DNA of 64,000 nucleotides from a virus (Duplodnaviria; Caudoviricetes), in the IMG/VR virus record IMGVR_UViG_2563367173_000002, positions 32,001-96,000 of that record. One strand, given 5' to 3'. Shown here piece by piece: positions 3,103 to 56,647 of the stretch (its first letter is position 1; every line of letters starts with the position of its first letter). A program made the position numbers and the translations under genes. The notes under the pieces were generated by a model that ran no database searches, had not been told where the DNA came from, and worked only from the letters and a program-made list of their open reading frames with translations.

Positions 3103-3210
3103 TCAAACCTCACCTCCTCCAAGTCCACACCATGAAATAAGAATTTCAACTGCCTATCACATCAGTATATAATGTTTATTGTCTTTGCATTATACAATAT
3201 GTTGTATATT

Positions 3211-3606
3211 TTATCTGCTTATCACAACATATATTGTCCATGTAACAAAAATCTGTGCTATGTGTATCCACTGATCCTGAATTAGGTTAATTTTCATCAA
3301 ATTTGCTTTTGCATTATCCGTAATTGTGTGTATCAGCCAATTCATTGTAAATATTACAATAAATAATAGGATATTTAGCTGCAATCCACAAACCACAGAA
3401 TAAATAATGATTGGAATATGGATCATAAAAGTCCAACTAAATGCGTGTTCCACCAACGCCATTATGTAATCATTCTTATACAACGGACTCGGAGCATTTT
3501 GTTCCCACCACTTCTTTTGTTTTGCTGATGCAAGCCAGCCTTGTAAGTAATAGTCATCTACAATGTGACAAAATAGCATACATAAAATTAGAATTGTTTC
3601 TCTCAA
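3211..3606 (-). CDS. DUF3307-like membrane protein
   Basis: HIVDDYYLQ...H...IHTITD...DQWIH pattern, hydrophobic. Confidence 0.7.
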   Translation of the reverse strand: MRETILILCMLFCHIVDDYYLQGWLASAKQKKWWEQNAPSPLYKNDYIMALVEHAFSWTFMIHIPIIIYSVVCGLQLNILLFIVIFTMNWLIHTITDNAKANLMKINLIQDQWIHIAQIFVTWTIYVVISR

Positions 3607-3658
3607 TAATATCTTCTCCTTTTTTATATTTTTGTTCTTGAAAGAACGCTTTCAAGTA

Positions 3659-4450
3659 CTATTTATCAAACCAATAAACATTAGAATTTTCTTTTTTTTC
3701 CTTATGATAGTCGCCAATCCAATGGAACTGTCCATGATCTCTACACCAATCATGACATGCTGACAAAACGTTTGAAAAATTTATCAGATTGGGATTCGAT
3801 ATCAATAACTCCAAATCCATATTTCTAATGGAATCTATTAAGTCTCTCTTGTATACTTCTTCATATGGGATTTTATCGATTATCAAAGTCAAATTATCTT
3901 TATCAAAACTTACTTCTCCGCATGCGAAATAATGCTTTTCTTCATTTACTCCGTCATGGTAACAAGAATATGTCCTATTTTTTAGTTTTTTAATTCTTCC
4001 CACACACATTTTTTCTATAAAATCTACTGCTGGATCAAAAAACTTGCTTTTATCTAATGTATATTTAACTGTATATAATCCGTCTTCTCTTATTTCAAGA
4101 TACTTTGTTCCAGAATACATTTGAATAGGTATTGGATTCTCTTTTACAAGTCCTATCTTCTTTGCATAGGATAGAAGATTTTCATCTTCATCGTGTACTC
4201 CAAATGGAATTCCACAAATAATAGAAAAGGCAGTTCTCGCATCAAGCCAATTACTTTTCATATATAAACTTCCATCTTCTCTAACTCCTACATTATCAGC
4301 TTCACCTTTCTCATAGATTTCTTTCACCTCATCAAGATTAAAATAAAAATCAGATTTACAATCATACCATCCAATTTCAATCCACTGATCTGTCCATCCA
4401 CCCATATAATCAGTCATTACATGTGTATTATCTATAAAATATTTTTTCAT
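3659..4450 (-). CDS. hypothetical phage protein
   Basis: 263-aa ORF with SD AAGGAG. Confidence 0.7.
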   Translation of the reverse strand: MKKYFIDNTHVMTDYMGGWTDQWIEIGWYDCKSDFYFNLDEVKEIYEKGEADNVGVREDGSLYMKSNWLDARTAFSIICGIPFGVHDEDENLLSYAKKIGLVKENPIPIQMYSGTKYLEIREDGLYTVKYTLDKSKFFDPAVDFIEKMCVGRIKKLKNRTYSCYHDGVNEEKHYFACGEVSFDKDNLTLIIDKIPYEEVYKRDLIDSIRNMDLELLISNPNLINFSNVLSACHDWCRDHGQFHWIGDYHKEKKENSNVYWFDK

Positions 4451-4489
4451 TTATCTCCTTTATGCCAAATGAAATTTCGGATTCATCGG

Positions 4490-4804
4490 TTATTCATATA
4501 TTGTGACTGTTTTTGCTACTTTTTGTCGTATCATACGACATTCAACAGTTTCAATAAAAAATGGTGCAACATCAACTTTTTCAATAATAGGAAATTCAGT
4601 CCCACGAATAGTAGCCCATCTTCCATGCCGTTCTAAATCTGATATTGTAACAATACCATGATTATCTTGAAGATATTTTAAATCACAAAGTAAATATTTC
4701 CTGTCATACGAACAATCACCACTATTTTCAAAATTCTTTAAATCCACTACTACAACTGGATAACCATTATCCTTTACTACATCACCTATTTGTGGTATAT
4801 ACAT
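4490..4804 (-). CDS. hypothetical phage protein
   Basis: 104-aa ORF with SD. Confidence 0.65.
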   Translation of the reverse strand: MYIPQIGDVVKDNGYPVVVVDLKNFENSGDCSYDRKYLLCDLKYLQDNHGIVTISDLERHGRWATIRGTEFPIIEKVDVAPFFIETVECRMIRQKVAKTVTIYE

Positions 4805-4819
4805 AATATTTCTCCCTTC

Positions 4820-5299
4820 TTAATCATTGATAATCTCATAAATAATATCATCGTGATATTTTCCATATTTATCTTTAACAGCATCTCTCAGAACGTACTT
4901 AGTGCCACCAAATTTATCACAAAACTTATCGTAATGTTTTTCTATTGGATTACCACCTATCATTCGCCATTCAATTCTATGTAAGTTATACTCATAAATA
5001 AGTTTCTTCAATTCACTATATAAATCTATTCCTACAATTGGATTGCCTCTATCAAAAGAAATTAATCCAAATCTGGAAGCACAAGAATTATACCAATCAA
5101 TATGATAATCAAGATATCCAACTAATTTTTCTTCTGAATTTACAATAGCAAATTGAAATCTTCCTGTTTCGGTTTCTTCTTGAATATTTGGCAACCAATT
5201 ATTTAAACCTCCAGTTTCGTACATCATATCATCCGAATAGTAATATCTTTTAAATGCTTCTTGTATTTCATTTTTCTTTATAATTGCAGGTATTAACAA
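4820..5299 (-). CDS. GNAT-like protein
   Basis: FAIVNSEEKLVGY...LHRIEW...GNP...YDKF pattern resembles RimJ/RimL-type acetyltransferases. Confidence 0.5.
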   Translation of the reverse strand: MLIPAIIKKNEIQEAFKRYYYSDDMMYETGGLNNWLPNIQEETETGRFQFAIVNSEEKLVGYLDYHIDWYNSCASRFGLISFDRGNPIVGIDLYSELKKLIYEYNLHRIEWRMIGGNPIEKHYDKFCDKFGGTKYVLRDAVKDKYGKYHDDIIYEIIND

Positions 5300-5337
5300 T
5301 CAAAAATCACCTCCCATCAAGTCTTGAAACCAAGATT

Positions 5338-5979
5338 CTATCCGATTATGTGTCGAAATTCTTCCATCCTTTTATCTTTAAATAAATAGTTCCCCTCAAT
5401 AATACTAATAATAGATATACATACATTGTTTTGTTCCCAACTTTTATCCCATGAAATATTATCATTAACTCTATAACTCCAATACAACGATATATTCTTT
5501 GGTAAAATTTTTTCAAAAATCATTCCATCCATATCCATATCATCTAAGAAATATTCTTTATAAGGTTTAATTTCTTTGATGAAAAAATCAAAGTACACTT
5601 CAGGCGTAATATTTTTTCCATTATATTGTTTATTAAGTTTTAATAAGAGTGATTTAATTGTTTCTAATTCCCATTTATATAATGTTTCAATTTCTTTATC
5701 ATAGACATCGGCATTTATACAAATTGGATATGATCTTAACAAAGGAAGTTTTTGTATTATTCTATTTTTTTCCAGGTTATTACTGTAAATTTTTAATAAA
5801 TGTGTAACAAAACAACTTTCTATATCTACTCCTTTTTTCTCTAATCTCTTCAGTATACTCTCCTTTGATACTATTTTGTTATTGGTCAAAAATGTCAAAC
5901 AAATATTTTCCAACCATTCAATATAACCATCTTTTTTATCTGTATCTATTTTTACATTTTTCATATTAAATTTCTCCAA
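5338..5979 (-). CDS. hypothetical protein
   Basis: 213-aa ORF bracketed by two junction motifs. Confidence 0.65.
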   Translation of the reverse strand: MEKFNMKNVKIDTDKKDGYIEWLENICLTFLTNNKIVSKESILKRLEKKGVDIESCFVTHLLKIYSNNLEKNRIIQKLPLLRSYPICINADVYDKEIETLYKWELETIKSLLLKLNKQYNGKNITPEVYFDFFIKEIKPYKEYFLDDMDMDGMIFEKILPKNISLYWSYRVNDNISWDKSWEQNNVCISIISIIEGNYLFKDKRMEEFRHIIG

Positions 5980-6002
5980 TTGAAATTAACCTTTTCAATG
6001 GC

Positions 6003-6893
6003 TTATTCATCTTTAAATTCTGTATCCTCAGTAACCATTGCACTATCTATAATCTGAACATAAGTGTTTTCATCAGGAGTAATGACAACGGGTTCCTTAG
6101 TTAATCCCCAAAATGTAAGTTGATTTCCCTCTGCTTTTATTACACTTCCGTCCCATTCCAGTATCTTTGTACTAAGTTTTACCTTTCCAGGAAGTAACGT
6201 AACCACCTTTGCCTCTTTGTCTTTATAATCTATATCCTTAATTCTATCTTCTATTTCTGGATATATCATTTTTACTTTATCAAATATATCTGGCATATAT
6301 CGTTTTAGCTGAGAACAAAATTTAGGAATTTCTTCTCTTTGATAAGATGTAATCTCACCGCCCATCATTGCTCTTGGTCTATATTTTATAAGTTCTACAA
6401 TGAATTCTGGTGTAAAATTTTCTTTCCTGATAATATCTCCATCACCCTTAAAGAAATTTTTTTCTCTAATGGAATTTGAGTAATTGATCAAATGTGGTAA
6501 CGGAAGAAACACATAATCACCAATATAACATAAAAATTTTAAATCTCCTTTGGAATATGCAACATCTCCATACTCATCTTTTCTCTTTCGTATTAAGTCA
6601 CCACATCTTCTTGCAGCTTTTGTATATCCTTCTTCTCTTTTTATTTGTCCATAAGAACAAGAGTGAGCATATAATCCGTTTAACATTGCACACTTATTTC
6701 TTTTGCAAGCATCACAATTTTCTGAATTATTGCAAGTGTAAACCGTGACCCTCTCTCTATCTCTTCTACCAGCTTTAAATAAACTGTTTCGTGGATCATA
6801 ATATGTAAAATTTATTGGAATGTAATTACTAATATCTTTCACCTCTTCTATAATAGAATTTTGCTTAATTTTTATTTTTATATCATTGACCAA
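6003..6893 (-). CDS. hypothetical phage protein, Cys-rich N-terminal part
   Basis: 296-aa ORF; true start uncertain. Confidence 0.65.
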   Translation of the reverse strand: MVNDIKIKIKQNSIIEEVKDISNYIPINFTYYDPRNSLFKAGRRDRERVTVYTCNNSENCDACKRNKCAMLNGLYAHSCSYGQIKREEGYTKAARRCGDLIRKRKDEYGDVAYSKGDLKFLCYIGDYVFLPLPHLINYSNSIREKNFFKGDGDIIRKENFTPEFIVELIKYRPRAMMGGEITSYQREEIPKFCSQLKRYMPDIFDKVKMIYPEIEDRIKDIDYKDKEAKVVTLLPGKVKLSTKILEWDGSVIKAEGNQLTFWGLTKEPVVITPDENTYVQIIDSAMVTEDTEFKDE

Positions 6894-10003: not shown

Positions 10004-10055
10004 ATTTATTCTCCTTTTTCACCCGATGAAAGCAAAATTTTAAGACTAATATTTT

Positions 10056-12555: not shown

Positions 12556-12599
12556 TCTATTACCTTTGATTTTTCTCATGAAAGAGTTGTTTTCTGGCA

Positions 12600-14253: not shown

Positions 14254-14275
14254 CTCCTGCCATGAAACCGATGAT

Positions 14276-15763
14276 TCAAGTCTTATTTTTCAATCCCATT
14301 TCAAGATATAATTCATCAACCGCATTACCCTTTCGCTTTAAACAGTTATAAATCTTTTCATCAATGGTGTTTTTGCCTTGTAAAATAATATAAGTACATT
14401 TATTATCCTGACCTATTCTATGTATTCTATCTTGACTCTGGCGATATTCCTCATAACTAAAATTCAAAGAATAATAAATGTTATAGGTACAATTTACAAA
14501 TGTTAAACCTTTTCCAAGCAACTTAGGGTGTGTAAATAACAATTTAATCTCATTATTTTTAAACTGACGAATTATCGAATCTCTATCTTTCGTCTGTGAT
14601 GTAAGTGCTACACCATTATATTTCTCTGCAAGTCTATTGATTTCATGCTGAAACTGACACCATATTATTATAGGTTTATCTCCTATTTCTTCAAATGCAG
14701 CATCTAATAGTTTATCTTTATTTGTATCAAAATCTATAATAGAACCATCTTTATTGATAACAAATCCACTTACTATTTCCCTTAATTTCATCAGCTTTGC
14801 AGTAAATTCAAACTTAGACCACTCATTTATGTTGTCCTGTATATCACGAATCATATCATCATAATATTTCTTCTGTTCTTTACCTAGTTCAAATCGCTTT
14901 ACTTCAAATACTTTTGGAGGAAGGTCAACACAATCCTCTTTCTTTAAAAACACAGATTTTTCTCTAAGTCTGTTAAAATACGCTTCTTTATCTTCTTCTG
15001 TTTGATACCATCTATGTGGATTTGCCATATCTTGATGAAAATATCTTGCTTGAAAACCGTAAAAATTATTACCAAACACTTCTGGATCAACAAATTTCAT
15101 CTGTGGGAAAATTTCTGAATTATGATTGGGTGTTGGTGTGCCTGATAATGCAAACCTATGAGGAATAATATCTATCATTTGTAGTAATTCATTTGTAATT
15201 TGACTCGTCATATTCTTCATTACTTGACTTTCATCAATTATCATACAATCAAAATTCATTTTCAAAATATCATTTTTGAGAATCTTAAAACTCTCATAAT
15301 TCATAACATAAATATCAGAATTACTATTTAAAAATGTCATTCGTTCTTTCTTACTACTTCCCCAACAATTCACAATGTTTAATTTAGGGTAAAATTCATT
15401 ACAATCGTCAATCCATGCTGTTTCGATTACAGATAAAGGACACAAAATTAAAGTCTTTTCATAATGCTTTGCAAGTTCCAAACCCATAATTGTCTTTCCT
15501 GTGCCTGTATCGGCAAAAATGCCATAACAGCCTTCATTTAAAGCAATGTTTACGATTTTCTTTTGATATTCTCTAAGATGAGGAGAAAGTTCAAATTGAA
15601 CAATCTCCTTTTCTTTTACTTCAATTTCTGAATCTATAAGACCATACTCTTGTAACTTCTTAACTGCTGAGTCTGGAAATTCCCATTTACCATTTTTAAA
15701 CTTTCTTCCCTCAATGGTTCTTATGTATGGTATCTTCTCTACTGGAATCTCTAAAGACACCAT
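14276..15763 (-). CDS. SNF2-family DEAD/H helicase
   Basis: DTGTGKT, DESQ, SGTP, QSQDRIHRIGQ. Confidence 0.92.
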   Translation of the reverse strand: MVSLEIPVEKIPYIRTIEGRKFKNGKWEFPDSAVKKLQEYGLIDSEIEVKEKEIVQFELSPHLREYQKKIVNIALNEGCYGIFADTGTGKTIMGLELAKHYEKTLILCPLSVIETAWIDDCNEFYPKLNIVNCWGSSKKERMTFLNSNSDIYVMNYESFKILKNDILKMNFDCMIIDESQVMKNMTSQITNELLQMIDIIPHRFALSGTPTPNHNSEIFPQMKFVDPEVFGNNFYGFQARYFHQDMANPHRWYQTEEDKEAYFNRLREKSVFLKKEDCVDLPPKVFEVKRFELGKEQKKYYDDMIRDIQDNINEWSKFEFTAKLMKLREIVSGFVINKDGSIIDFDTNKDKLLDAAFEEIGDKPIIIWCQFQHEINRLAEKYNGVALTSQTKDRDSIIRQFKNNEIKLLFTHPKLLGKGLTFVNCTYNIYYSLNFSYEEYRQSQDRIHRIGQDNKCTYIILQGKNTIDEKIYNCLKRKGNAVDELYLEMGLKNKT

Positions 15764-20423: not shown

Positions 20424-20456
20424 AATATTCCTCCTTAAATTTTGCTTTGAAACAGA

Positions 20457-21179
20457 TTATTTATTGTCTAGCCAATCTTTATATTGTCGAATAAGTTCTG
20501 TATACAATTCTTCGTCATTCATGTTCTCCATATCTTTAACTGAAATGAATCCAGTATTATCACACTTTCTACCTGGCATGTTATCTAAAGAACGTAGATA
20601 AGTAAATGATTCATTTCCAATTCCAACAAATTGAACAAACATATTATATTCAGATAATTCTCTTATAATTTTATCTGTTTCACTCTGATCTGAATTCGCT
20701 CCATCTGTAATAAAAATTATAAATGCAGGTATATCATTTAAACTAGTTTTGTTATAATATTTGACTATATCTCTCAATACTGGCGCATATTCTGTTCCTC
20801 CCATACACATGCCAGATTTGACCATAATATTTTTAACATAATCTTCATAATTATTAGTAGTTACTGATTTTAGTTTCTTTTTTTCGTTAGAAAACAACCA
20901 TGATTCTAATTCACCATTATCATCAAACCGTAAAGCAATTGGAAGCAGTCTTGTAATAGTTCTTTGTATAGCCCCACTACAAAATAGTTTATCCATACTT
21001 CCAGAATAATCCATAGCAAGTGCTACTTTCGCGATATGCTTGGATAAATTTACTTTACCTTCTTTTGATAAATTCACCAAAACCTTATCTAAATTATCTT
21101 TTGATTTTGACAAATTGATTATTACACTCTTTTGAGCATTGTCAACTTCCTTGTTGAAAAACTTTCCTAATAATCCCAT
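20457..21179 (-). CDS. vWA domain protein (TerF-associated type)
   Basis: MIDAS DYSGSM, GGTEYA, FITDG, FVQFVGIG, LDNM; start probably MGLLGKFF. Confidence 0.8.
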   Translation of the reverse strand: MGLLGKFFNKEVDNAQKSVIINLSKSKDNLDKVLVNLSKEGKVNLSKHIAKVALAMDYSGSMDKLFCSGAIQRTITRLLPIALRFDDNGELESWLFSNEKKKLKSVTTNNYEDYVKNIMVKSGMCMGGTEYAPVLRDIVKYYNKTSLNDIPAFIIFITDGANSDQSETDKIIRELSEYNMFVQFVGIGNESFTYLRSLDNMPGRKCDNTGFISVKDMENMNDEELYTELIRQYKDWLDNK

Positions 21180-21297
21180 AATAAGAATCCTTTCTGATGT
21201 ATTTATTTTATAATATCTATAATAATAAAGTGCCAAATTTAATAAGGTCTGACACAATGACCTCTAAAAATAGCTTTAAAATCTCGATTTCATGTCT

Positions 21298-28477: not shown

Positions 28478-28517
28478 AACTTCTTTTTCTCCTCCTATGA
28501 AATGCAAGTTTTAAGAC

Positions 28518-29362: not shown

Positions 29363-29384
29363 CCCCTTTCTTGAAACGTGGGTT

Positions 29385-31184
29385 TTAAGACTTTTTCACT
29401 ACAACCAACGAATCCTTCTGAACTGTTGTAATTGCATTTGATAATTCATCATTTCTTACTTCTATCTGTTGCTCGGTTTTACCCTCTGAATTATATCTAC
29501 CACGCATAGCAGCACCAACAGCATATAAATAACTAAAACCACCTGCATTACCTACTGGCTGTGACAACAGAGCCATTGCAATCGCATCTGCATCATACAC
29601 CCTATTTCCTTGTCTAAATTGCTTACCAAAATTTATTTCTCCAATCCCACCAACTAATATCGGTTTATGATTACCACAAACAGAATCTAGTCCGCTTGTG
29701 GGATTGATAAAATTTATCATTTTCTCATCTATGCAAATATATGTATCATCATACTGAGCCTTATACAAATGCTCAATTAATAGTGAAATTGCTGTTGTTA
29801 CAATTGAATTTCCTGATTGTTTATACCCTTGGGTATCAGACATTCCAACTGCTTTACATCTCTCAAAATCTTCATCATCAAATCCCATAAGTCTATGAGC
29901 TTCTTTAGGTGTAAGCTTTCTTACAATTCTAAGATTATCTCTTTCAACTTTTGGCTCAGTATTACCACCACCACAAGTATGCATCGCAGGAGCAATACCA
30001 TCTTCACTATATATTCCCCGTGACTGTTCATGCATCCTTTGGAATTTCTCACTGCACAAATCAGCAATATGTATCGGCTCATTTGTTGTGTCCAATATCT
30101 GTTTAGGTTGCTTATAATCAGTAGCAAGTAATGCGTCCATAATTGAATCTTTTTGATATACTAAATCTCTTTGCCCGATAGTCCTAAATTCTGGTTTTGT
30201 TGTATCAACAATATTTTTTTCAAATTTCGGATCGGTAATTTGTAGTCTTCTTTGCACTTCATCCGACAAAAAATATTTATCTAAAACTTCGTCATCCGTT
30301 TCTAATAAATCTTTTAATCGAATTCCATTATCAAATGGTTGAGGGAATTTAAACTGTTCTGTATCAATTTCTTTAAGAATGGAAACGCAGAAAATTCTAT
30401 TTCGGTTCTGTGGTATGCCTGTGTTTTTTGCATTGATTGTTTGAAAATATGAGTTATATCCCAAGTTGTCCAATCTATCAATCCAATCATTAAAACTATC
30501 AATATATTTTTTAGACACAAGAGCATCTACATTTTCCATAAGTAAATATTTTGGCAAATTATTGTTTTCATTTGCCTTTACAAGCAGTCTTTCTACTTCA
30601 TACAACAACCCTGAACGAGTTGACTTAATATTATTACTTCCGCAACAAGGACATTTATATCTTGTATCAACATTTAATTTTGATGGGTCATATTCCATAC
30701 CACAATCTTGACAAGTCCACTTTAACCCTTCCTGTTTTCCTGCAATCGATAAATCAGTACACGGCGTTGAATATGTAAGCATATCACAATCCGACAGTTC
30801 TTTAATCTGCATTATATCTCCCAAATTATGTGAAATATGATCAGCCAACCAGTATTTTTCTATGCCTTTCGTTTTGTCTTTCTTTTTTGATAACTTTTCC
30901 CAATCATATGGTTCATCTTTTTTAAAATCAAATCCTAATCTTTTCTTAGATAACTCATTCACCATTTCATCCTTGGAAGGATAATTACCATATTCATTAA
31001 TCATTTCATTAGTTAATCCACAATGAATAGCAGCATAACTAACAATAACCTCTTTATCTAAATCTGCTGTTGCGACAACCTCTGCGTCAAACAGATTTGT
31101 ATTATTAATTCCTTTTATCTGTGCACCAATTCCACTACACAACTCAATAACTTTTAAACTAAATCTTTTATTATTACTTTCCAA
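29385..31184 (-). CDS. DNA cytosine-5 methyltransferase with zinc-finger insert
   Basis: ELCSGIG, STPCTDLS, MENV, PQNRNRIF, RKLTPKE, QSGNSI. Confidence 0.92.
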   Translation of the reverse strand: MESNNKRFSLKVIELCSGIGAQIKGINNTNLFDAEVVATADLDKEVIVSYAAIHCGLTNEMINEYGNYPSKDEMVNELSKKRLGFDFKKDEPYDWEKLSKKKDKTKGIEKYWLADHISHNLGDIMQIKELSDCDMLTYSTPCTDLSIAGKQEGLKWTCQDCGMEYDPSKLNVDTRYKCPCCGSNNIKSTRSGLLYEVERLLVKANENNNLPKYLLMENVDALVSKKYIDSFNDWIDRLDNLGYNSYFQTINAKNTGIPQNRNRIFCVSILKEIDTEQFKFPQPFDNGIRLKDLLETDDEVLDKYFLSDEVQRRLQITDPKFEKNIVDTTKPEFRTIGQRDLVYQKDSIMDALLATDYKQPKQILDTTNEPIHIADLCSEKFQRMHEQSRGIYSEDGIAPAMHTCGGGNTEPKVERDNLRIVRKLTPKEAHRLMGFDDEDFERCKAVGMSDTQGYKQSGNSIVTTAISLLIEHLYKAQYDDTYICIDEKMINFINPTSGLDSVCGNHKPILVGGIGEINFGKQFRQGNRVYDADAIAMALLSQPVGNAGGFSYLYAVGAAMRGRYNSEGKTEQQIEVRNDELSNAITTVQKDSLVVVKKS

Positions 31185-31340
31185 ATGCCTTATCTACAAG
31201 GCGTTGCAACGCTAATTTATCCGGAATTACTTGTTATATCCTTTCTCTAATTTGTTATTTGTGAATCTTTCGTGGGTTCATGACTCCCTATGAAAGATTT
31301 AATTCATCGGATAAAATATCCGTTTATATATCAAAAATTC

Positions 31341-32250: not shown

Positions 32251-32288
32251 TTTACCACCTCATCTTCACTTGAAACCTTCGTTTTATT

Positions 32289-33376: not shown

Positions 33377-33402
33377 CTGTCCATCTCCTTGAAACGGAAA
33401 TT

Positions 33403-33792
33403 TTAATGTGTAGTTATTTCATATAATAATCCATTATACGGTTTTATCTCCCACCCTTGACTCCACGCATCAAATATCATTTTATCAACAGGAACACGAA
33501 TACCAGTTTTCAACTCTGCATAATAGGAGTTATCATCTAAAAATCCATGTTCATTACCAACATACCAACCATCAAGCAATAATTCCTGTAAATGTGGTGA
33601 ACAACATACGCAACACGCCTCTTTAATATTTCTTTGATCACATCCGCTTTTACAATCTCTTTCTGCACATTCAGGAATAAAAATTTTAGACAAATTATAC
33701 GGTGTAATCTTTTCAATTTTATCAATGTCATAAGCAAAAAATGTTATCTCATGATGAGTTTGCTTTATATGAAATTCCTGATTGATATTCAT
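33403..33792 (-). CDS. hypothetical Cys-rich protein
   Basis: 129-aa ORF bracketed by junction motifs. Confidence 0.6.
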   Translation of the reverse strand: MNINQEFHIKQTHHEITFFAYDIDKIEKITPYNLSKIFIPECAERDCKSGCDQRNIKEACCVCCSPHLQELLLDGWYVGNEHGFLDDNSYYAELKTGIRVPVDKMIFDAWSQGWEIKPYNGLLYEITTH

Positions 33793-33825
33793 ATACTTTC
33801 TCCTTCCTTAAAACTCGTGTTTCAA

Positions 33826-36627: not shown

Positions 36628-36704
36628 AACTTATCATCTCTCCTTTTCATTTTTGTGATATATATTTCTCTTTTCTTACTTGAAAGTTTCAATTCATTAT
36701 AATA

Positions 36705-37325: not shown

Positions 37326-37360
37326 CTTAAAATCTCCTTAGATAAAATCAAATTTTTATC

Positions 37361-37733: not shown

Positions 37734-37760
37734 CATGAAATGAATTTTTCAAAGACTTAT

Positions 37761-41673: not shown

Positions 41674-41741
41674 TTTCCCAATGAAATGCGGCTTTCAATG
41701 CATGATTTATTTAATTTCCTGTTTTATTTGAAATATATAGA

Positions 41742-45990: not shown

Positions 45991-46172
45991 TCTGATTTAT
46001 ATATTATATATTTCTACACTATGAAAGTATATAGCAGTGCTTATAGCAACATTATTTGTACAAATAATTGACATAAGCAATACTGTGTAGTGCAAAAAGC
46101 AATATGTCAAGTAATATTTCAAAATAATTCGTTGACATAGGCAACATTGTTTGTTATTTTTATATTAACGAG

Positions 46173-48535: not shown

Positions 48536-48558
48536 GATAAATTCCTCCGTTTTTTGCT

Positions 48559-50132: not shown

Positions 50133-50187
50133 TACATCACTTCCTTCCCCGTTTAAAGATATCCAGACTCGCATTTTCGTCACACTC

Positions 50188-50421
50188 TTAAACAATTCCA
50201 AAGATACAAGCCAACCTGTAAAGTAAATTTCTTTCACGCTTTATTTTTCTTTCTTCTTCCCTCTGTGCTTTTCTCTTCATACGATCTGAAATAGCAATCT
50301 GAATATTTATTTCCTGATACTCTATCATCTGAGTAGGAGTTAATGCGCTATATGGTGTTTTTAATGAACGATCTATAATCTCTGAACCATCTGCACATGT
50401 GATAATTCTAAATTCATACAT
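50188..50421 (-). CDS. hypothetical phage protein
   Basis: FRIITCADGSEIIDRSLKTPY, SD AAAGGA. Confidence 0.65.
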   Translation of the reverse strand: MYEFRIITCADGSEIIDRSLKTPYSALTPTQMIEYQEINIQIAISDRMKRKAQREEERKIKRERNLLYRLACIFGIV

Positions 50422-50692
50422 AATTTTTTCTTCCTTTCTTTTTCTAGTTTTTTGTGATATAATTTGATTGGTTTTTTTAATAGGATTTTATTTCTCTTTT
50501 ATTTGATAAAAGGCAAGGCGTGCTTGGTATACGGTTGCTTTATCTTGCAATGATCATATCACCAGAAACGTGATATTCAATTGACAATATCACTAATAAT
50601 CGAGATGATATTTTGTAAATTTTGTCACTAGTAATCGTGATGTTGTTATAGTATATTTTACTCATACATTTACTAACAGGAGGTTTCATAAT

Positions 50693-50919
50693 ATGCCAAT
50701 AAGCTACCGTAAATTGTTATTAATTTTTGAAGAAAAAGCATTACTTCTTATACTATTAAGAAGGAAAAGGTTATTGGTCAATCTGCATGGAAAAAGATTC
50801 ATGAAAACGGACATATTGACACACGAACCATTGAATCATTATGTAAATACCTTAATTGTCAACCTGGTGATATTTTTGAGTATATACCAGACGATGAGCC
50901 AAACTCACAATCTAAATAG
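50693..50919 (+). pseudogene. Cro/C1-type HTH gene with a 1-nt frameshift
   Basis: MPISYRKLLLIFEEK / ITSYTIKKEKVIG...TIESLCKYLNCQPGDIFEY. Confidence 0.75.
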
Positions 50920-50928
50920 CAATAACAA

Positions 50929-50985
50929 AATCAAAAAAGGTGTAAAGTCTTGATAATTTATTAAGACTTTACACCTTTTTTGATT
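50929..50985. terminator. 28-bp inverted repeat, bidirectional terminator
   Basis: AATCAAAAAAGGTGTAAAGTCTTGATAA and its reverse complement, 27 of 28 match. Confidence 0.75.
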
Positions 50986-50997
50986 AGTGGTTAATAT

Positions 50998-51174
50998 TTA
51001 GTTGACTGTTAATGATGGTTTTTGATACAACTTGCGATTAATTGCTTTTTTTTCAAATTCAATTTGTTTTAAAACATTTTCAGCATTATCTTTTTTTGCT
51101 TCAATTTCTAGCCTCTCTAAAAGCGTAAGTTGATCAAAAAGATAACAGTTTAACTCCTTTTCATTATTTGGCAT
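50998..51174 (-). CDS. small hypothetical protein (58 aa)
   Basis: Not in track; MPNNEKELNCYLFDQLTLLERLE... Confidence 0.55.
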   Translation of the reverse strand: MPNNEKELNCYLFDQLTLLERLEIEAKKDNAENVLKQIEFEKKAINRKLYQKPSLTVN

Positions 51175-51385
51175 ACAATCACCCGTCTCTCTTTAATAAT
51201 TTTCACTGTTTGTTACATTTTAATTATAACGGATTATGTAAAAAGTGTAAAGCCTTATTAAATTGTCAATGTACCAATTGCGTTTAAAACAAACCCATTA
51301 TTTTCTTCTTTTCATATTTGACTGATTGTGTTATAATTACTATCAACGTTAAATTAAAAATGACATTATATTACCTATAAAAAAT

Positions 51386-51536
51386 AGGAAAATGTTCAGT
51401 TTTTATTGACTTTTTACCGAAAATATTCTATTATAATATAAAAGAAAATATTCAATGCAAATAGATTATTTTCTACATGCAGATACTATACTAGAAAATT
51501 ATCCTTATGTCAATAATGAAATTAGATTTTTTTCTG
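51386..51536. promoter_or_regulatory. opposing promoters with about six TAGAAAATATTCTA-like operators (genetic switch)
   Basis: Plus strand TTGACT-17-TATTAT (51406-51434); minus strand TTGACA-17-TATAGT (51513-51485). Confidence 0.7.
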
Positions 51537-51558
51537 TAAATTAAAGGAGGTAAATATT

Positions 51559-51987
51559 ATGTCATTAAAAACCCGTGTGAAAAACCTTGCTAATGAACAT
51601 GGAATGAGCTTAACCGTACTTGAATCTAAACTCGGTTTTGGTAATGCCACTATTACAAAATGGGATAAAAATACGCCTAATGCCGATAAGTTAAATACAG
51701 TAGCTCAGTATTTTGGTGTAAGCATGGATTACTTATTAAACGGTATTGATCAAAATGGTCTTTCTGAAAAAGATAACCGTGATATCGCAAAAGATTTAAA
51801 CAGTCTCAAAAGAAAACTAACCAACCGTGAAGACGGCCCAGTAAACTTCGACGGAAATGATATACCGGATGATGATCTGGATATGTTTCTTGGACAAGTC
51901 GAAATCATGCTCAGACGTTTAAAACCAATTAACAAGGAAAAATATAATCCAAACAAACATAAAAAGCAGGTGGATACATTTGAATAA
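51559..51987 (+). CDS. Xre-family phage repressor (ImmR-like)
   Basis: HTH with PNADKLNTVAQYFGVSMDYLL; paired with an ImmA-like gene. Confidence 0.88.
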   Translation: MSLKTRVKNLANEHGMSLTVLESKLGFGNATITKWDKNTPNADKLNTVAQYFGVSMDYLLNGIDQNGLSEKDNRDIAKDLNSLKRKLTNREDGPVNFDGNDIPDDDLDMFLGQVEIMLRRLKPINKEKYNPNKHKKQVDTFE

Positions 51988-52462
51988 AAACATAAAACAT
52001 ATTGTTGATTATTATGTCAAAAAATGTGATAGCAGAAATCCATTTGATATTGCTGATTATTTAAACATTCAAATTCAAATAGGACAACTTGGTACGCCTT
52101 GTGGATGTTATATGTTTCTTAAAAACCATAGGTGTATATTTCTCAATGAAAATTTATCTGAAAATGAAATGAATCTTGTAATGTCGCATGAACTTGGACA
52201 TGCTATCATGCACAGAAAACTTAACTGCTATTTTATCCGCAATAAAACATTATTACTTGATTCTAAAATAGAAATAGAAGCTAATAGTTTTGCTGTAAAT
52301 TTGCTTATACCAGATGAAATTATAATGGAAAACATGAACTATACTACAGAACAACTTTCGATGTTACTTGGATATAACCAGAAATTGATTGAGTTACGCT
52401 TAAAATCATTTAAAAACGAATCGAAACAACTTGATTTTATTAATAAAATATGTAATAATTAA
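51980..52462 (+). CDS. ImmA/IrrE metallopeptidase
   Basis: NPFDIA, SHELGH, EIEANSFA. Confidence 0.92.
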   Translation: MNKNIKHIVDYYVKKCDSRNPFDIADYLNIQIQIGQLGTPCGCYMFLKNHRCIFLNENLSENEMNLVMSHELGHAIMHRKLNCYFIRNKTLLLDSKIEIEANSFAVNLLIPDEIIMENMNYTTEQLSMLLGYNQKLIELRLKSFKNESKQLDFINKICNN

Positions 52463-52465
52463 TAA

Positions 52466-52593
52466 TAGCATAACGTATCTGTTATGTTCAAATTCTGCCT
52501 ATCAGGTTATGAATTTGTGTGTATGTATAAAGACCTGTTCGAATCAGAGGTGCGCCAACACCGTTTGTATGATTTGATGGGTCTTTTTGTTTT
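52466..52593 (+). ncRNA. putative structured small RNA / 3' UTR with CGCCAA loop
   Basis: Three hairpins; GGTG-CGCCAA-CACC inside the AAAGACC...GGTCTTT terminator. Confidence 0.45.
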
Positions 52594-52605
52594 CCATTAT
52601 AAGTA

Positions 52606-53145
52606 TTAATATGAATCTATTATGCAGTTTCTGATATTTTTTAATTGTGATGCGTCATCTCCTTCTTTTACAAAATAGTATATATTATTATTTATTTCAT
52701 CTATTCCGCAATATCTATCAGACACTACTGATATGTTGTTTTCCACTTCTCTTGAATATAATGGTTTTCCTAAACTTTTTCCATATCGTTCAATTAATGC
52801 CTGCTTTACATCTTGGTTTTCTTCTGTTATTTCTTCTATTAACTTCATTTGTTTTATTTTATCTGTTTCATCCATTTCATCTATTACTGATTTGAAAAAA
52901 GGAATTTCTAATATATCTTTAGATGGAACAGATATTTCACAATGTGCCGACAGATAAGTTATATTTTCACCTTCACGTCTTCGCCAATTATATGCAAACC
53001 ATTGTAACTTGACTGCAATTTTAAAATTTAAGTCTAGTATGTTAAAACGGAATGATGATTGATTGATACTGGTAAAACACGAAAAAACCTTATCTCCAAA
53101 TAAACCTATATCAGGTAATATAAACCATCTATTAACCACATTCAA
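52606..53145 (-). CDS. hypothetical protein
   Basis: 179-aa ORF, SD AAGGAGG. Confidence 0.6.
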   Translation of the reverse strand: MNVVNRWFILPDIGLFGDKVFSCFTSINQSSFRFNILDLNFKIAVKLQWFAYNWRRREGENITYLSAHCEISVPSKDILEIPFFKSVIDEMDETDKIKQMKLIEEITEENQDVKQALIERYGKSLGKPLYSREVENNISVVSDRYCGIDEINNNIYYFVKEGDDASQLKNIRNCIIDSY

Positions 53146-53272
53146 ATGATCGCCTCCTTTATTATTAATTTAAATAGTTTAATGACTTATATATATAGTA
53201 TATAAGGCTTATTTGATGTTGTCAATATATTTTTTGGAGTTTTTATAATTTATTTTATCTTATCATAGTTTA

Positions 53273-53617
53273 CTAACAGTTAAATGAACATGAGAACGGA
53301 TGAAGCATGATTAACATATCATGTTTTATTCCAATAGGAAGTATATTAAATATATCTTTTTGCAATTCTGTGTACATAGATAATATTGAAACTCCATCCT
53401 CTTCGTCATCTTCATTTAAAATAAAAGTATTACAATTTTTTATTATTTGCAGTCCTTTTTCTTTATCAATTTCTTTTTTTGGAATCGGTATTCCTTTTTT
53501 TAAATCATAAGATAACAAGATAAATTTGTTGTATCCGAAATATTCATTTATTTCAAGTAAATTAGCTTCCATTAAGCGAATAGCCTGAAGCTTAGTGATA
53601 CTAACTAATTTTGACAT
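53273..53617 (-). CDS. hypothetical protein
   Basis: 114-aa ORF, SD AAGGAG. Confidence 0.6.
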   Translation of the reverse strand: MSKLVSITKLQAIRLMEANLLEINEYFGYNKFILLSYDLKKGIPIPKKEIDKEKGLQIIKNCNTFILNEDDEEDGVSILSMYTELQKDIFNILPIGIKHDMLIMLHPFSCSFNC

Positions 53618-53638
53618 TTTATTCTCCTTATTAATAAT

Positions 53639-54025
53639 TCAACTCATCTTCAATTCTTTAAGATCAGCATCACGCTCCCCATATGCTGCTGAATAAATAA
53701 AACATTTAAATATATCTTTTTGCAACATCCTGTCTTCTATATGACCAATCTTTTTTGCCTTTTCTTTATTAATTGTTGAGATTTGTTCTGCTAATAGTAT
53801 AGAATCTCTTTTCAAACCATTTTCTTTGCTATGTTTTATAAATAAATGAGTTGCTTGTTCTAAATTTTTTAATCTTGATGTTAAAGGCATCACAATAAGC
53901 GTTGGAGAATATTTATTTCCAATATTATTTTGAATAACAATACCTGGACGGTAACCAGATTGTATAGAGCCATCATTATCTGGAAATTCTCCAAATATAA
54001 CGTCATATTTATTAAAAGTAGTCAT
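53639..54025 (-). CDS. PemK/MazF family toxin
   Basis: GSIQSGYRPGIVIQNNIGNKYSPTLIVMPLTS, GLKRDSILLAEQI. Confidence 0.9.
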   Translation of the reverse strand: MTTFNKYDVIFGEFPDNDGSIQSGYRPGIVIQNNIGNKYSPTLIVMPLTSRLKNLEQATHLFIKHSKENGLKRDSILLAEQISTINKEKAKKIGHIEDRMLQKDIFKCFIYSAAYGERDADLKELKMS

Positions 54026-54152
54026 TGTAATGCCTCCTTCCACACATTCATTGCAGTTCATTTGTACTTGTCATTATGAAGTATATATATTATTTTTTAT
54101 ATTTAATTCCTTTTGTGTATAAGATACTACAACTCTAGTGAGGTGTATACGT

Positions 54153-54385
54153 ATGAAAATATCTATACAGAAGAAATTAAATAATATAGAAATAAGTAGA
54201 TATGAATTAGCTAAAAGGGTTGGTATAACTTATCCAACAGTTGACAATATCTATAAAGGAATTTTTTTTAAACATTAGAAGCTATATGCAAAGAACTTAA
54301 TTGTACTCCAAATGATATATTTATATCAGACGATCCACATATACAGCAATTACTTTCAAATCTGTCAATTGTCAATAAAGAATAA
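54153..54385 (+). pseudogene. Cro/C1-type HTH pseudogene
   Basis: ISRYELAKRVGITYPTVDNIYKG, then a break, then TLEAICKELNCTPNDIF. Confidence 0.7.
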
Positions 54386-54388
54386 ATA

Positions 54389-54422
54389 TTTAGGACGATA
54401 TTTAAAATAATATCGTCCTAAA
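54389..54422. terminator. terminator hairpin between convergent genes
   Basis: TTTAGGACGATATT / AATATCGTCCTAAA. Confidence 0.7.
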
Positions 54423-54429
54423 CTATTTT

Positions 54430-54987
54430 TTAGTCAACTTTTTCAAATATATCTTTTAATTCCATCTTTATATGTGGGAATGCTTTTAAACTGATAATAG
54501 TTTCTGCATTATAATGAGCATCATCAGGATCTTCTATTAAAATATAATTTTGTTCCATTGTATACTTTCCATCTTTTAAATAATATATTTCAACAGATTT
54601 CCCTTGTGGTGTAACGATCCAATATTCTTCTACTCCCGCAGTTTCGTAGATATCTTTTTTTTCAGTTTTATCTCTTTTAGCTGTTGATGGACTTAAGGTT
54701 TCCACGATAAATTTTGGAATACCACTATAAGTTCCGCCTTTTAATTTATTCCGATCACATACAATCATCACATCTGGGCAGATATAATCATCATTTTCTT
54801 CTGGATGAAATTTAAAATCAAGATTTTCCATTGATACAAGACATATGCTATCTCTTAATCCTTGCTTAATTATTGTATGAATATTACTATTTATAATTCC
54901 ATGTCGATATCCAGGGGCAGGAGACATATCATAAATAATTCCGTCAATTTTTTCATCTCTCCAATGTTCGTTTGTAGCTAATATCAT
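54430..54987 (-). CDS. Uma2 family (DUF820) endonuclease
   Basis: EKIDG..YDMSPAP..H, PDVMIVCD, VETLSPST, Y...GVEEYWIV. Confidence 0.9.
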   Translation of the reverse strand: MILATNEHWRDEKIDGIIYDMSPAPGYRHGIINSNIHTIIKQGLRDSICLVSMENLDFKFHPEENDDYICPDVMIVCDRNKLKGGTYSGIPKFIVETLSPSTAKRDKTEKKDIYETAGVEEYWIVTPQGKSVEIYYLKDGKYTMEQNYILIEDPDDAHYNAETIISLKAFPHIKMELKDIFEKVD

Positions 54988-55110
54988 ATTCTCACATCCT
55001 TACTTTAATATTTTTATGTCTATTTTATAATAATGCATATATTATGTCACTAGGGACAATAGTGTTAATAATGATAATAAAGTACACCTTGTATTTATTT
55101 ACAATTTTTA

Positions 55111-55208
55111 AAGTGAACTACCCATCATCTAAAGTCAATGGATCTCCTGCGTTATCGACCTCGCAACCTACTATCTCCATAGGCGTTAATTCGGGCTGCA
55201 CCATCTCT
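55111..55208. mobile_element. possible remnant of an IS200/IS605-family end
   Basis: GC-richer AAGTGAACTACCC...CTACTATCTCCATAGGCGTTAATTCGGG resembles clostridial IS605 ends as recalled; no tnp gene. Confidence 0.35.
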
Positions 55209-55220
55209 AACTAATATATA

Positions 55221-56261
55221 TTAGCGGCTTATTGTTTCTAATCCATCTAATAATTCGTTATATAATTTTATTAGTATAGTGGCGTCAGTTTCGTCTTTTA
55301 AGTCCAGAATCTTTCCAAATGCACAAAGCATATAATTTCTCAATTCTGAATTGTCATATACGCTGACAGGATTTTTCACTAAAAACGGAACTTCTTCACC
55401 ATCCATAACATACTTCTTATACTTCTGACCATAATCATCTAAATATTCCATTTCTAATTTAGCAGTTTCACCTAAATATTTGTTTGTCATTTTCTCCGAC
55501 GAATGATTATATAATTCCATTAGTACAGATTTTGCTACAGGATCGTTTGGATGCAGTTCCAATAGCATTTTTCCCATTCCCCGGCGCATGGAATGAGAAC
55601 GAATTTCATAATCAAGACATTCACCAGCTTTTATAAGTGCTTTCCTATATCCTTCTTCCGATATAACTTTACCTCTATGAGTACCATGTAACTGTTTAAA
55701 AATTGGTTCATCATAATCATATTTGAAATTAATACTCTTTTCATTCTCGAGAAAAATTCTAAATGCTTCTTGAACAGCGATATTAACAAAAAGTTCTTTT
55801 GATTTTCCAGTTTTTTGTTCGCCGGGGATTCTCTGATCGTCTTCATCAAGTTTCTTTATATTCCAAAACTTTTTCATACTTCCATTTTTATAGAAGAAAT
55901 CTGACCATAAAGCTTGTCGCAGATCAGATATACGCCTACCTGTATTGGCGTTCAATGTGAAAAGTAGATAGAAATTCCATTGATTGTGTTCAATAAAGTA
56001 ATTTTGAATTTTTTTCATATCTTCAAAATTTTCAATAGCTGTCTTGATAGATTTCGTACCACGCTGTTTGTTTATTACTTTACCATTTTTATCAAGGTAT
56101 TTTCGTTCGCCATCTACTTCAATAAAATATTTCCCTTTCATATTTGTTAAGATTGGATAATCATCTCCACAATATTCACATGTTTTTCTTTCTGTTTTAT
56201 GTGGTTCTTCTGTATATGTAACATTATTTAATGCTATAGCTTCCATAATCATTACCCCCAT
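55221..56261 (-). CDS. tyrosine recombinase / integrase
   Basis: TGRRISDL (R), EQKTGK (K), HSMRR (HxxR), YNHSS...TNKY (H, Y). Confidence 0.92.
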   Translation of the reverse strand: MGVMIMEAIALNNVTYTEEPHKTERKTCEYCGDDYPILTNMKGKYFIEVDGERKYLDKNGKVINKQRGTKSIKTAIENFEDMKKIQNYFIEHNQWNFYLLFTLNANTGRRISDLRQALWSDFFYKNGSMKKFWNIKKLDEDDQRIPGEQKTGKSKELFVNIAVQEAFRIFLENEKSINFKYDYDEPIFKQLHGTHRGKVISEEGYRKALIKAGECLDYEIRSHSMRRGMGKMLLELHPNDPVAKSVLMELYNHSSEKMTNKYLGETAKLEMEYLDDYGQKYKKYVMDGEEVPFLVKNPVSVYDNSELRNYMLCAFGKILDLKDETDATILIKLYNELLDGLETISR

Positions 56262-56647
56262 TTTATTGTGTTTTGATCTTACTGTTATTAATTCTCTTTA
56301 TTGTTTATCAAAGAAAATGATATTTTATCGTCTAATTTGATAAACAATAAATTAAAATACTGAACCTAGCAACTGATTTTACAGTTTGAATATTTTCCCG
56401 TCCGATTAGATGCAAGTAGCTGGGAAGCTAGATTGGCAAGGTCGTAACTCATATACACGCCTGTATAAACACTATTCGGATTAAATAACCCTAGTTATAT
56501 AAGTTGCTAAAGGTTTATTTTTCTTTCCTTTAACTGTCTTTATTATAGCATTACGTTTTTCTAATGTCAACACATTTTCATAATATTTTATTATATTTCC
56601 GTGATGTATATAGACAAAAGTAAAGACATACCTCTTATAGCATGTCT

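Follow-up and report, generated by a model that had tools for sequence, protein, structure and literature searches.

T4-type phages carry promoter-early stem-loop (PeSL) cassettes, for which mini-circles have been shown (PMC2839356). As that source describes them, PeSLs resemble the motif reported here in being dozens of short conserved intergenic elements placed between a stop codon and a Shine-Dalgarno sequence, in clustering within hyperplastic, ORFan-rich regions, and in bounding insertions, deletions and replacements between close relatives. They are longer, however, combining a sigma-70-like promoter with a stable stem-loop terminator, whereas our motif has no promoter, terminator or stable hairpin and fixes only 10-12 bases around a variable core (PMC2839356). 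Cluster A mycobacteriophages such as L5, temperate like the phage studied here, have more than 20 short repressor sites, the stoperators, in short intergenic spaces spread genome-wide, as our motif is (PMC9283540). Stoperators, in contrast to our palindrome, are 13-mers that lack symmetry, bind a monomer and are oriented with transcription; also unlike the stoperator system described in that source, we found no motif copy at a candidate early promoter, and the repressor here is only putative (PMC9283540).

Bacillus phage SPbeta resembles ours in being large and temperate, in having a Firmicute host and in encoding a DnaE-type polymerase, and its SPBRE elements can be likened to our motif, by description and not by sequence, as short repeated intergenic elements (PMC10516654). 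Their binder, MrpR, has a tyrosine-recombinase fold, and a binder of that type would tie the recombinase singled out in a preliminary description of this DNA to an operator role (PMC10516654). MrpR lacks the catalytic residues, however, whereas the recombinase of our window (the whole stretch of 64,000 nucleotides analysed) retains R, K, HxxR, H and Y, and the source reports only 9 MrpR peaks against some 40 motif sites (PMC10516654). The 17-bp dyad repeats of cluster O mycobacteriophages, with more than 30 copies per genome, share with our motif inverted arms, a variable centre and a greater density towards one genome end (PMC4351075). They differ from it in sequence and geometry (7-bp arms, 3-bp centre) and in lying within genes in about a third of cases, whereas our motif is almost wholly intergenic; unlike our motif, they are not linked to gene exchange in the passages of PMC4351075 consulted, and the Corndog gene 14 insertion is flanked there by a separate 17-bp direct repeat.

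The motif DNA comes from a large prophage of a mouse-gut bacterium with a 6.7-Mb genome. Read on the coding (minus) strand, the element is a 16-base palindrome, W-TGAAA-N6-TTTCA-W, at junctions between accessory genes of the prophage, after the stop of the upstream gene and ahead of the Shine-Dalgarno sequence of the next. Exact matches to TGAAA-N6-TTTCA number 4 in the window versus 0.57 expected, and matches with at most one mismatch 27 versus 12.3 ± 3.3 in shuffled sequence (maximum 21, 100 shuffles); 16 of these 27 fall within the 8,715 intergenic bases. The enrichment at gene junctions that the preliminary description had proposed to test against shuffles proved strong. Using the relaxed coding-strand pattern T[AG]AA[AT]-N6-TTT[CT]A, we found a site in 13 of 53 same-strand gaps (3,965 nt) versus 0.25 ± 0.49 (maximum 3) in 1000 dinucleotide-preserving shuffles, and the strict form in 8 same-strand gaps versus 0.04. 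The coding strand of genes (55,002 nt) held 2 relaxed and no strict copies, which is the background level. An unguided 5-mer test ranked TTTCA first among words unrelated to the Shine-Dalgarno sequence (22 of 93 gaps, 6.8 expected). The palindrome at gene boundaries is thus confirmed, and all 13 examples quoted in the preliminary description were found in place; its count of more than 20 junctions was generous, there being 16 sites with at most one mismatch and about 20 when weaker copies are added.

Exact copies occupy 3133..3148 (TGAAATTCTTATTTCA on the coding strand; separating genes 3211-3606 and 2500-3072), 3639..3654 (7 nt past the stop of 3659-4450 and 32 nt ahead of the start of 3211-3606), 37736..37751 (12 nt past the stop of 37761-38060) and 41682..41697 (23 nt ahead of the start of 41398-41658). 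Single-mismatch copies lie at 4470..4485 (7 nt past the stop of 4490-4804, 19 nt ahead of the start of 3659-4450), 10027..10042 (between 10056-10472 and 9746-10003), 14263..14278 (left arm forming the TGA stop of the SNF2 helicase gene 14276-15763), 28498..28513 (between 28518-28856 and 28118-28477), 32271..32286 (between 32289-32564 and 31927-32250) and 33390..33405 (left arm forming the TAA stop of 33403-33792). The weaker copies are those at 5325..5340 (two mismatches, left arm forming the TAG stop of 5338-5979), 5981..5997 (7-nt spacer, between 6003-6893 and 5338-5979), 12579..12594 (two mismatches, right arm intact, between 12600-12848 and 12364-12555), 37343..37358 (relaxed, two mismatches, 17 nt ahead of the start of 37119-37325) and 20448..20463 (relaxed).

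Pairs of sites do bracket genes and blocks, as had been claimed. The vWA gene 20457-21257 has its stop overlapped by the copy at 20448..20463, and a single-mismatch copy (21277..21292) sits in the 170-nt gap upstream of it; the C5 methylase gene 29385-31184 takes its TAA stop from the left arm of a single-mismatch copy at 29372..29387, with another, 31291..31306, lying 106 nt upstream of its start; and the DGR block has single-mismatch copies on its downstream (33809..33824) and upstream (36681..36696) sides. The further claim of a bracketed DUF3307 gene found no backing, since none of the Pfam-scanned proteins matched DUF3307. The stretches noted as free of the motif are so: 21.35-28.45 kb lacks copies altogether, and 42-64 kb holds no convincing one. 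A supposed copy at 56312, upstream of the recombinase gene, has two mismatches, a background-level match, and is not counted as a family member.

The composition of the unique sites is informative about the nature of the element. Of 60 such sites, 16 use the left arm as a TAA or TGA stop codon, and in 33 of the remaining 44 that arm reads TGAAx; 54 of the 60 have TTTCA as their right arm, and 56 have A or T at both outer flanks. The left arm previously described as the better conserved is indeed so on the plus strand, where it corresponds to the Shine-Dalgarno-side arm of the coding strand; part of the looseness of the opposite arm comes from its second use as a stop codon. Cores vary, as reported, but not with complete freedom, their G+C content being 47% versus 33% in the flanks. 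Asymmetric variants of both kinds occur in coding orientation, and we found no sigma-70-type promoter or intrinsic terminator accompanying the sites. When a 5-bp stem is forced, its median energy is -0.2 kcal/mol, so that the motif is not an RNA hairpin; the symmetry of the arms (TGAAx/TTTCA, A/T flanks) instead points to duplex DNA.

The 238-kb prophage contig carries 12 sites and the other ~6.46 Mb of the host genome 26, and this roughly 12-fold higher density on the prophage contig marks the motif as phage-owned rather than part of a host regulon. A complete 177-kb relative (G001) has about 41 unique sites, 36 of them in one half, while a control pattern gave 5 hits. Strict copies number 3-8 per ~21 kb in the 9 loci of the motif clade; of the other 30 loci, 24 have none and the remaining 6 at most 2, and relatives with an ~80% identical helicase have no motif. 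Such restriction to one clade is consistent with co-evolution of the site and a binding protein encoded by the phage.

We tentatively favour, as quite possible though short of probable, the reading in which copies of the motif are scattered over module boundaries as binding sites for a dimeric DNA-binding protein of the phage and serve as recombination joints only incidentally. The motif itself, where it sits, its confinement to the phage and to a single clade, and the breakpoints at it are shown by the data; protein binding and a regulatory role are what we infer. The element would be an operator-like site in duplex DNA, W-TGAAA-N6-TTTCA-W, with two 5-6 bp half-sites one helical turn apart, and the putative dimeric binder would be encoded by the motif clade of large (~160-180 kb) temperate Lachnospiraceae phages. 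Some 40 copies per genome, each between the stop codon of an accessory gene or block and the next Shine-Dalgarno sequence, would probably control or block transcription running from module to module, perhaps in the manner of stoperators or SPBRE sites. Because the copies lie right on the borders between modules and have 10-12 identical bases in common, they also appear at joints of module exchange between related phages; we regard this as a by-product that arises when recombination over short homologies is followed by selection preserving gene boundaries.

Several observations count against such an operator. Pfam searches of 70 chosen window and contig proteins yielded no obvious candidate for a motif-binding protein in the motif-rich part. 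Known repressor systems have an additional site at the early promoter, and no copy with at most one mismatch lies near the ImmR/ImmA-like regulator pair (51.5-52.5 kb). Scarcity of the motif in one genome half is unlike a whole-prophage silencer, and the G+C-rich spacer is not accounted for.

Comparison of relatives shows homology breaking at the motif. Loci L020 and L023 show 100% identity across 14,980 bp, diverge directly after TTTCAT and regain homology at the next motif. Relatives of the window lose homology at sites 14263 (L058), 20448 (L057, L059), 28498 (L057, L061, inside the site) and 32271 (L059, L062, within 1 nt). Crossovers were observed at both left and right core edges, and the same 16-mer was found between unrelated flanks. 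Among 87 cross-locus pairs of sites with the same core, 25 differ upstream only, 10 downstream only and 35 on both sides, and identity stops within the arm or 0-4 nt outside it in 37 of 38 cases upstream and 22 of 23 downstream. The motif is therefore tied to neither neighbour consistently and acts like a joint in its own right, something not foreseen by a model in which it is an operator and nothing else. Equally at odds with an operator, 16-mer identity islands in the first locus set were commoner in motif gaps (10/48) than in other gaps (4/69; p 0.02). In gaps of 20-80 nt, however, a sharp breakpoint occurred in 22 of 34 with the motif versus 20 of 36 without (p 0.47). The earlier interpretation, breakpoints inside the motif with exchange of N6, is thus partly supported: many cases exist, but motif-free gaps of similar length break about as often. 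At matched length the effect is not motif-specific, as the by-product view would predict.

It is unlikely, on balance, that the motif is a dedicated recombination site, at which a phage recombinase would cut the 6-bp core edges and sites of the same core in co-infecting relatives would swap one side, the core serving as an address label. The loss of homology at either edge of the core or just outside the arms would suit this, as would the same-core pairs with unrelated flanks on both sides and identity ending near the arms; yet the gaps are so short that any crossover within them lands a few bases from the motif, breakpoints in 20-80 nt gaps are no commoner with it, and the island excess of set 1 is missing in set 2 (15/30 motif gaps versus 156/402 others). 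By inspection all 41 unique G001 sites differ in core, which would avoid self-deletion, but no repeat is expected among 41 random cores anyway. Each phage has 2-3 tyrosine recombinases with intact catalytic residues; these occur in the motif clade and the motif-free clade alike, so that clade B has the same recombinase kinds without the motif, and between the two we found no tracking of motif presence by recombinase presence. Typical tyrosine-recombinase sites have arms of 7-13 bp, longer than the 5-6 bp here, and a G+C-rich core is atypical for an overlap region.

An integron-like working, as first proposed, receives no support. Like attC, our motif is an imperfect inverted repeat at junctions of a one-directional gene array, and its sites bracket single genes or small blocks. 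However, attC sites span 57-141 bp, form hairpins when single-stranded and contain a conserved R box, whereas the motif measures 16-18 bp with no stable fold and, unlike an integron, most junctions lack a site (40 of 53 gaps). No IntI-type integrase, recognisable attI or Pc was found for the motif system, and the window's recombinase matches none of the integron-integrase models. Every integron feature tested fails.

Rather less likely again is a self-maintaining linker, a 16-mer with no regulatory role that is kept, like PeSL, as a short-homology patch for relaxed homologous recombination. The prophage contig does encode an AAA_24 (Sak4-like) protein, a PD-(D/E)XK nuclease and a RecD-like helicase, and the motif region is ORFan-rich and highly variable, with blocks swapped between relatives; identity islands and decayed copies missing one arm are also present, and PeSLs offer a precedent, albeit one whose promoter and terminator content the motif lacks (PMC2839356). 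But homology-driven exchange is served very poorly by 10-12 fixed bases around a variable core, and it needs neither strict palindromy nor a fixed 6-bp spacing.

We consider it improbable, slightly more so than the linker, that the motif is an RNA-level signal in a polycistronic transcript, an endoribonuclease or translational-regulator site just ahead of the Shine-Dalgarno sequence. The copies do lie in same-strand gene arrays, the start codon follows the motif end by 9-32 nt in 46 of 60 unique sites, and the phage encodes a CCA-adding or poly(A) polymerase-like protein and a Thg1-like protein. Reverse-complement symmetry would be meaningless in an unpaired single strand, however, and the hairpin is unstable; moreover, 21 of 60 sites have A at arm position 2, and in all but one of these it would face a C, in long gaps the motif sits nearer the upstream stop more often than the downstream start, and a single gap can hold tandem sites.

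It is very improbable that an unrecognised RNA polymerase or transcription factor of the phage uses the motif as a promoter or activator site, with transcripts starting just past TTTCAW. The motif is a compact 17-18 bp element right before the Shine-Dalgarno sequence of many gene blocks and is clade-specific, and a Sigma70_r2 protein, detected in clade B and below threshold in clade A, means that transcription factors differ between clades, but a palindrome is unusual for a promoter, several sites are followed immediately by the Shine-Dalgarno sequence with no space for a leader, and neither an Rpb1-type nor a T7-type polymerase was found in G001, G002, G006 and G007 in a search limited to these two types, the T7-type part of which is weak, its model having hit no control genome.

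Contig joints in run X14 fall at 28517, beside site 28498..28513, at 36698, next to the copy upstream of the DGR block, and at 37343, the first base of the relaxed copy there.

The palindrome W-TGAAA-N6-TTTCA-W is real, strongly non-random, phage-specific and clade-specific, and it marks the boundaries of accessory modules, where it is often the joint of module exchange. All of the copies quoted in the preliminary description are present in the window, but its figure of more than 20 marked junctions came down to about 16 window copies with at most one mismatch, or about 20 when weaker ones are included. The copy placed at 56312 near the tyrosine recombinase gene has two mismatches and is not credible, and no copy stands beside that gene. 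Anchoring on TTTCA, we examined 24 copies in gaps of the contig and derived the coding-strand consensus T-R-A-A-A, six variable bases, T-T-T-C-A and then A or T; over the bases 11 to 7 nt upstream of TTTCA, in that order, T was present in 21 of the 24, a purine in all, A in 23 and then in 20, and A or T in 22. The predicted concentration at gene junctions was borne out, the relaxed pattern occurring in 13 of 53 same-strand gaps against 0.25 ± 0.49 in 1000 shuffles, and twice in 55,002 coding bases. Unguided word counts led to the same element: TTTCA was the top word unrelated to Shine-Dalgarno sequences in the gaps of the contig (22 of 93), and it also came first in the motif-bearing relatives, here clade A (28 of 86 unique gaps, 4.3 expected).

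In a set of 60 unique sites, drawn from the contig and from nine related loci, the motif began 0-21 nt past the upstream stop in 53 and ended 9-32 nt ahead of the downstream start in 46, and in 16 the left arm itself served as the stop codon. The recurrent right-hand flank TTTTAAGAC, said to occur three times, does so: on the coding strand it appears as an extended left flank, GTCT before TAAAA, in the copies at 10027, 28498 and 29372. A second short intergenic element, roughly 40 nt long and containing a 12-bp palindrome, was seen in clade A relatives (near 3995 in locus L018, 3016 in L019 and 1521 in L013), where it forms an island of identity between unrelated flanks.

The virus record comprises 110,561 bp at 32% G+C, of which the window covers 32001-96000. 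The SNF2 helicase gene of the window is 100% identical to a stretch of a 238-kb contig of Eubacterium plexicaudatum ASF492, and the motif positions on that contig match those in the window; thus, the window lies within a prophage of this mouse-gut Lachnospiraceae strain. A site for a host-wide regulator was rejected, there being 12 perfect copies on the 238-kb contig and 26 in the other ~6.46 Mb. The prophage extends further than the virus record, as four of these 12 contig sites are not covered by it. Window DNA had no match in the phage collection searched; relatives in IMG/VR are contigs of 113-177 kb, some rated complete. These phages form a large, abundant and little-studied family of temperate phages of about 160-180 kb in gut Lachnospiraceae, and one of them, residing as a prophage in a strain of the Altered Schaedler Flora, is therefore open to culture and experiment.

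Clade A comprises nine loci of about 30% G+C with 3-8 strict copies per ~21 kb. Strict copies were absent from 24 of the other 30 loci and never exceeded two in the remainder, the 30 including loci of about 34% G+C with a helicase roughly 80% identical. A replacement motif was sought in the motif-free clade and none was found, the enriched words there coming from orthologous gaps only. Five clade A records gave 39-61 strand hits each as against 1-5 for a reversed control pattern, and a complete 177-kb genome has 36 of its ~41 unique sites in the stretch from 87 to 177 kb.

The upstream 32 kb of the record encodes NrdD, NrdG, an NAD-dependent ligase and a DnaE-type polymerase, as well as RecD-like and DnaB-like helicases, a PD-(D/E)XK nuclease, an AAA_24 protein and an IS605 OrfB. 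In the window, the genes of the 1-42 kb array, all on the minus strand, are ORFans and auxiliary enzymes, including the SNF2 helicase, two N6/N4 methylases, one C5 methylase, a PAPS-reductase-like protein, CCA-adding or poly(A)-polymerase-like, vWA/TerF-like, YpsA/SLOG and Thg1-like proteins, and a DGR with its reverse transcriptase. Antisense to this array, in the region 37343-37751 where the preliminary description placed a moron with its own promoter and terminator, lies a DUF1413 gene (37440-37694, plus strand); a perfect TTGACA-17-TATAAT promoter (37361-37389) precedes it and, as described, a hairpin comes after it. From 42 to 56 kb there follow two GmrSD-like genes, an XRE regulator, an ImmR/ImmA-like pair (51559-52462), MazF (53639-54061), Uma2 (54430-54987) and the tyrosine recombinase (55221-56261); this motif-free block (42000-56300) has a flavour of defence or immunity. 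That it might be an inserted element with att sites was rejected, a search for flanking direct repeats having found none longer than 15 nt. The last segment, 56-64 kb, is higher in G+C (39-49%) than the rest of the prophage and carries IS110-family (57403-58413) and IS66-family (61043-62662) transposases; past it, at contig 99-104.5 kb, phage-like genes and motif copies appear again.

Within clade A, gene order differs in that blocks between motifs are replaced by different blocks. For example, loci L020 and L023 are identical over 14,980 bp, diverge directly after the right arm of one copy and regain homology at the left arm of the next. Counting as sharp the ends of homology with 90% identity or more over 500 bp or more, we found 105 unique ends in the nine loci, 43 of them at the motif, 37 in other gaps and 25 in genes, while positions within 12 nt of a motif make up only 2% of the total. 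The closest relatives of the window, with a CCA enzyme 85-98% identical, lose homology at 14276, 20456, 20465, 28511, 28513, 29365, 32270 and 32287, all of these positions being at motif copies. Contigs from metagenome run X14 show joints at 28517, 36698, 37343 and 37734, among the joints listed, which may be replacements rather than deletions, all four runs consisting of assembled contigs.

The expectation that breakpoints between relatives would fall at the motif was borne out in part: many do, but they are in no excess over motif-free gaps of matched length. Per unique junction, a sharp breakpoint was found at 30 of 43 with the motif and 71 of 199 without it (odds ratio 4.2); among gaps of 20-80 nt, the figures were 22 of 34 and 20 of 36, not a significant difference, though one blurred by decayed motif copies in about 8 of the 36. 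Because the gaps are so short, a crossover anywhere within one ends up beside the motif. Many breakpoints are located, with no motif present, at a Shine-Dalgarno sequence or where a stop and a start codon overlap. Identity islands were found in 10 of 48 motif gaps and 4 of 69 others in one set (p 0.02), and in 15 of 30 and 156 of 402 in a second, where the difference was not significant and diverged coding flanks confound the comparison. A test of ever-broken adjacency was discarded as saturated and uninformative (32 of 36 versus 125 of 136).

What kind of signal the motif represents is suggested by its form. The arms are mutual reverse complements, the left reading TGAAx in 33 of the 44 sites free of stop-codon duty and the right TTTCA in 54 of 60. 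On either outer side the flanking base is A or T, each of the two asymmetric variants is found in the coding orientation, and a single gap can contain two sites in tandem. An RNA hairpin or terminator was rejected on the median energy of the forced stem (-0.2 kcal/mol); with 3-nt flanks, the mean MFE was -2.2 for the motif and -0.7 for shuffles. Rfam and tRNA scans of the window returned no match. Between 22.5 and 42.5 kb, neither sigma-70 promoters nor intrinsic terminators accompany the motif, promoter-like matches numbering 103 against 115.5 expected with none tied to coding-strand sites. Two genomes of clade A and two of the motif-free clade B yielded no Rpb1-type polymerase; nor did these four yield a T7-type polymerase, in a weak search whose model matched nowhere. 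A Sigma70_r2 factor of about 185 residues is present in the two clade B genomes (G006:C1:39999-40184 and G007:C1:120887-121072) and falls below threshold in the two of clade A.

The symmetry, the unstable hairpin and the absence of promoters and terminators together point to recognition of duplex DNA by a dimer. As judged from the spacing of the arms, the half-sites of this putative dimer would lie one helical turn apart, a geometry typical of helix-turn-helix operators. We favour, if tentatively and at somewhat less than even chances, a distributed operator for a putative phage protein, with recombination at the sites as a side effect. Such an operator would imply a global regulator of some 40 accessory-gene modules, among them the DGR, methylases and defence-like genes.

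A dedicated recombination role for the motif, which would provide a mechanism by which these phages become so finely mosaic, seems to us unlikely. We are similarly doubtful that the copies are addressable joints, at which co-infecting relatives would exchange modules through sites with the same 6-bp core by means of a phage-encoded recombinase or a nick-and-anneal system. If true, this would be a phage-borne cassette exchange of a construction unlike that of integrons, and a concrete form of the 'linker sequences' in the modular theory of phage evolution. Identity does break off inside an arm or 0-4 nt beyond it in 37 of 38 and 22 of 23 unique cases. Among 87 cross-locus pairs with the same core, the flanks were unrelated on both sides in 35, differed upstream only in 25 and downstream only in 10, and showed no difference in 17, and in individual examples the core had stayed with its upstream flank, its downstream flank or neither of them. 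Tyrosine recombinases with intact catalytic residues, two to three per genome, occur in both clades, with and without the motif. With inverted arms of 5-6 bp around a 6-bp core, the motif is compatible in geometry with a tyrosine-recombinase core site of the Cre, Xer or lambda type, whose overlap region is 6-8 bp, but its arms are shorter than the 7-13 bp of known sites. The 55221-56261 protein retains R (TGRR), K, HSMR, H and Y; by its sequence it is a divergent type, with no match among PDB sequences and 26% identity to a 347-residue recombinase in the accessory region of the clade A genome G002.

The integron-like system put forward in the preliminary description failed on every point that could be tested. 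An integron-type integrase was not found: no NCBIfam model matched the window recombinase, and recombinases of the relatives scored 15-30 bits on integron-integrase models with cut-offs of 265 and 435. attC sites are long, imperfect inverted repeats with a conserved R box that take up a single-stranded fold, whereas the motif spans 16-18 bp, with arms TGAAA/TTTCA and a median hairpin energy near zero. In an integron, every cassette is followed by its own site and attI and Pc head the array; here, only those 13 of the 53 same-strand gaps hold sites.

A handful of phage systems are known to have short repeats distributed over the genome, and a function is known for only some of these; full-text literature searches found no published description of this motif. 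As portrayed in abstracts and passages of PMC2839356, PeSL cassettes share with the motif their placement and a tie to module shuffling, both being found in variable regions of ORFans, at the borders of what has been inserted, deleted or replaced among relatives; a PeSL, however, combines a sigma-70-like promoter with a stable stem-loop, and the motif has neither. Stoperators, in the corresponding passages of PMC9283540, are likewise numerous and lie in the short gaps between the genes of a temperate phage. In contrast to the palindromic motif, with both its asymmetric variants in the coding orientation, they are asymmetric and oriented with transcription. They are bound by the immunity repressor and occur at the early lytic promoter too; around the ImmR/ImmA-like genes (42-57 kb), the motif has no copy with at most one mismatch. 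A similar distributed intergenic pattern is described in passages on SPBRE and MrpR (PMC10516654), SPBRE being compared without its sequence, and on the cluster O dyad repeats (PMC4351075). According to the former, MrpR has a tyrosine-recombinase fold that has lost its catalytic residues; the 55221-56261 protein and the recombinases of the relatives keep theirs.

Several features of the array deserve separate mention. The DGR looks complete (34126-36627): its reverse transcriptase spans 34126-35163, the template repeat 35276-35364 and the variable repeat, 80% identical, 35869-35957 at the 3' end of the gene 35857-36627. A 285-nt direct repeat, 73% identical between 33056-33340 and 36714-36998, indicates that the genes 33053-33376 and 36705-37073 are paralogous; the two flank the DGR block, with a motif copy beside each. 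A LAGLIDADG endonuclease gene (40216-41292) lies directly upstream of the Thg1-like gene (39360-40031), whose match begins at profile position 49, and the arrangement may represent a split or invaded gene; one X14 contig joins 39367 to 41667, spanning this whole block. Finally, contigs of three runs break at 30270-30325 and at 34486-34712, regions linked by no repeat of at least 30 nt, and runs X11 and X12 each contain one contig that joins 30325 to 34671.
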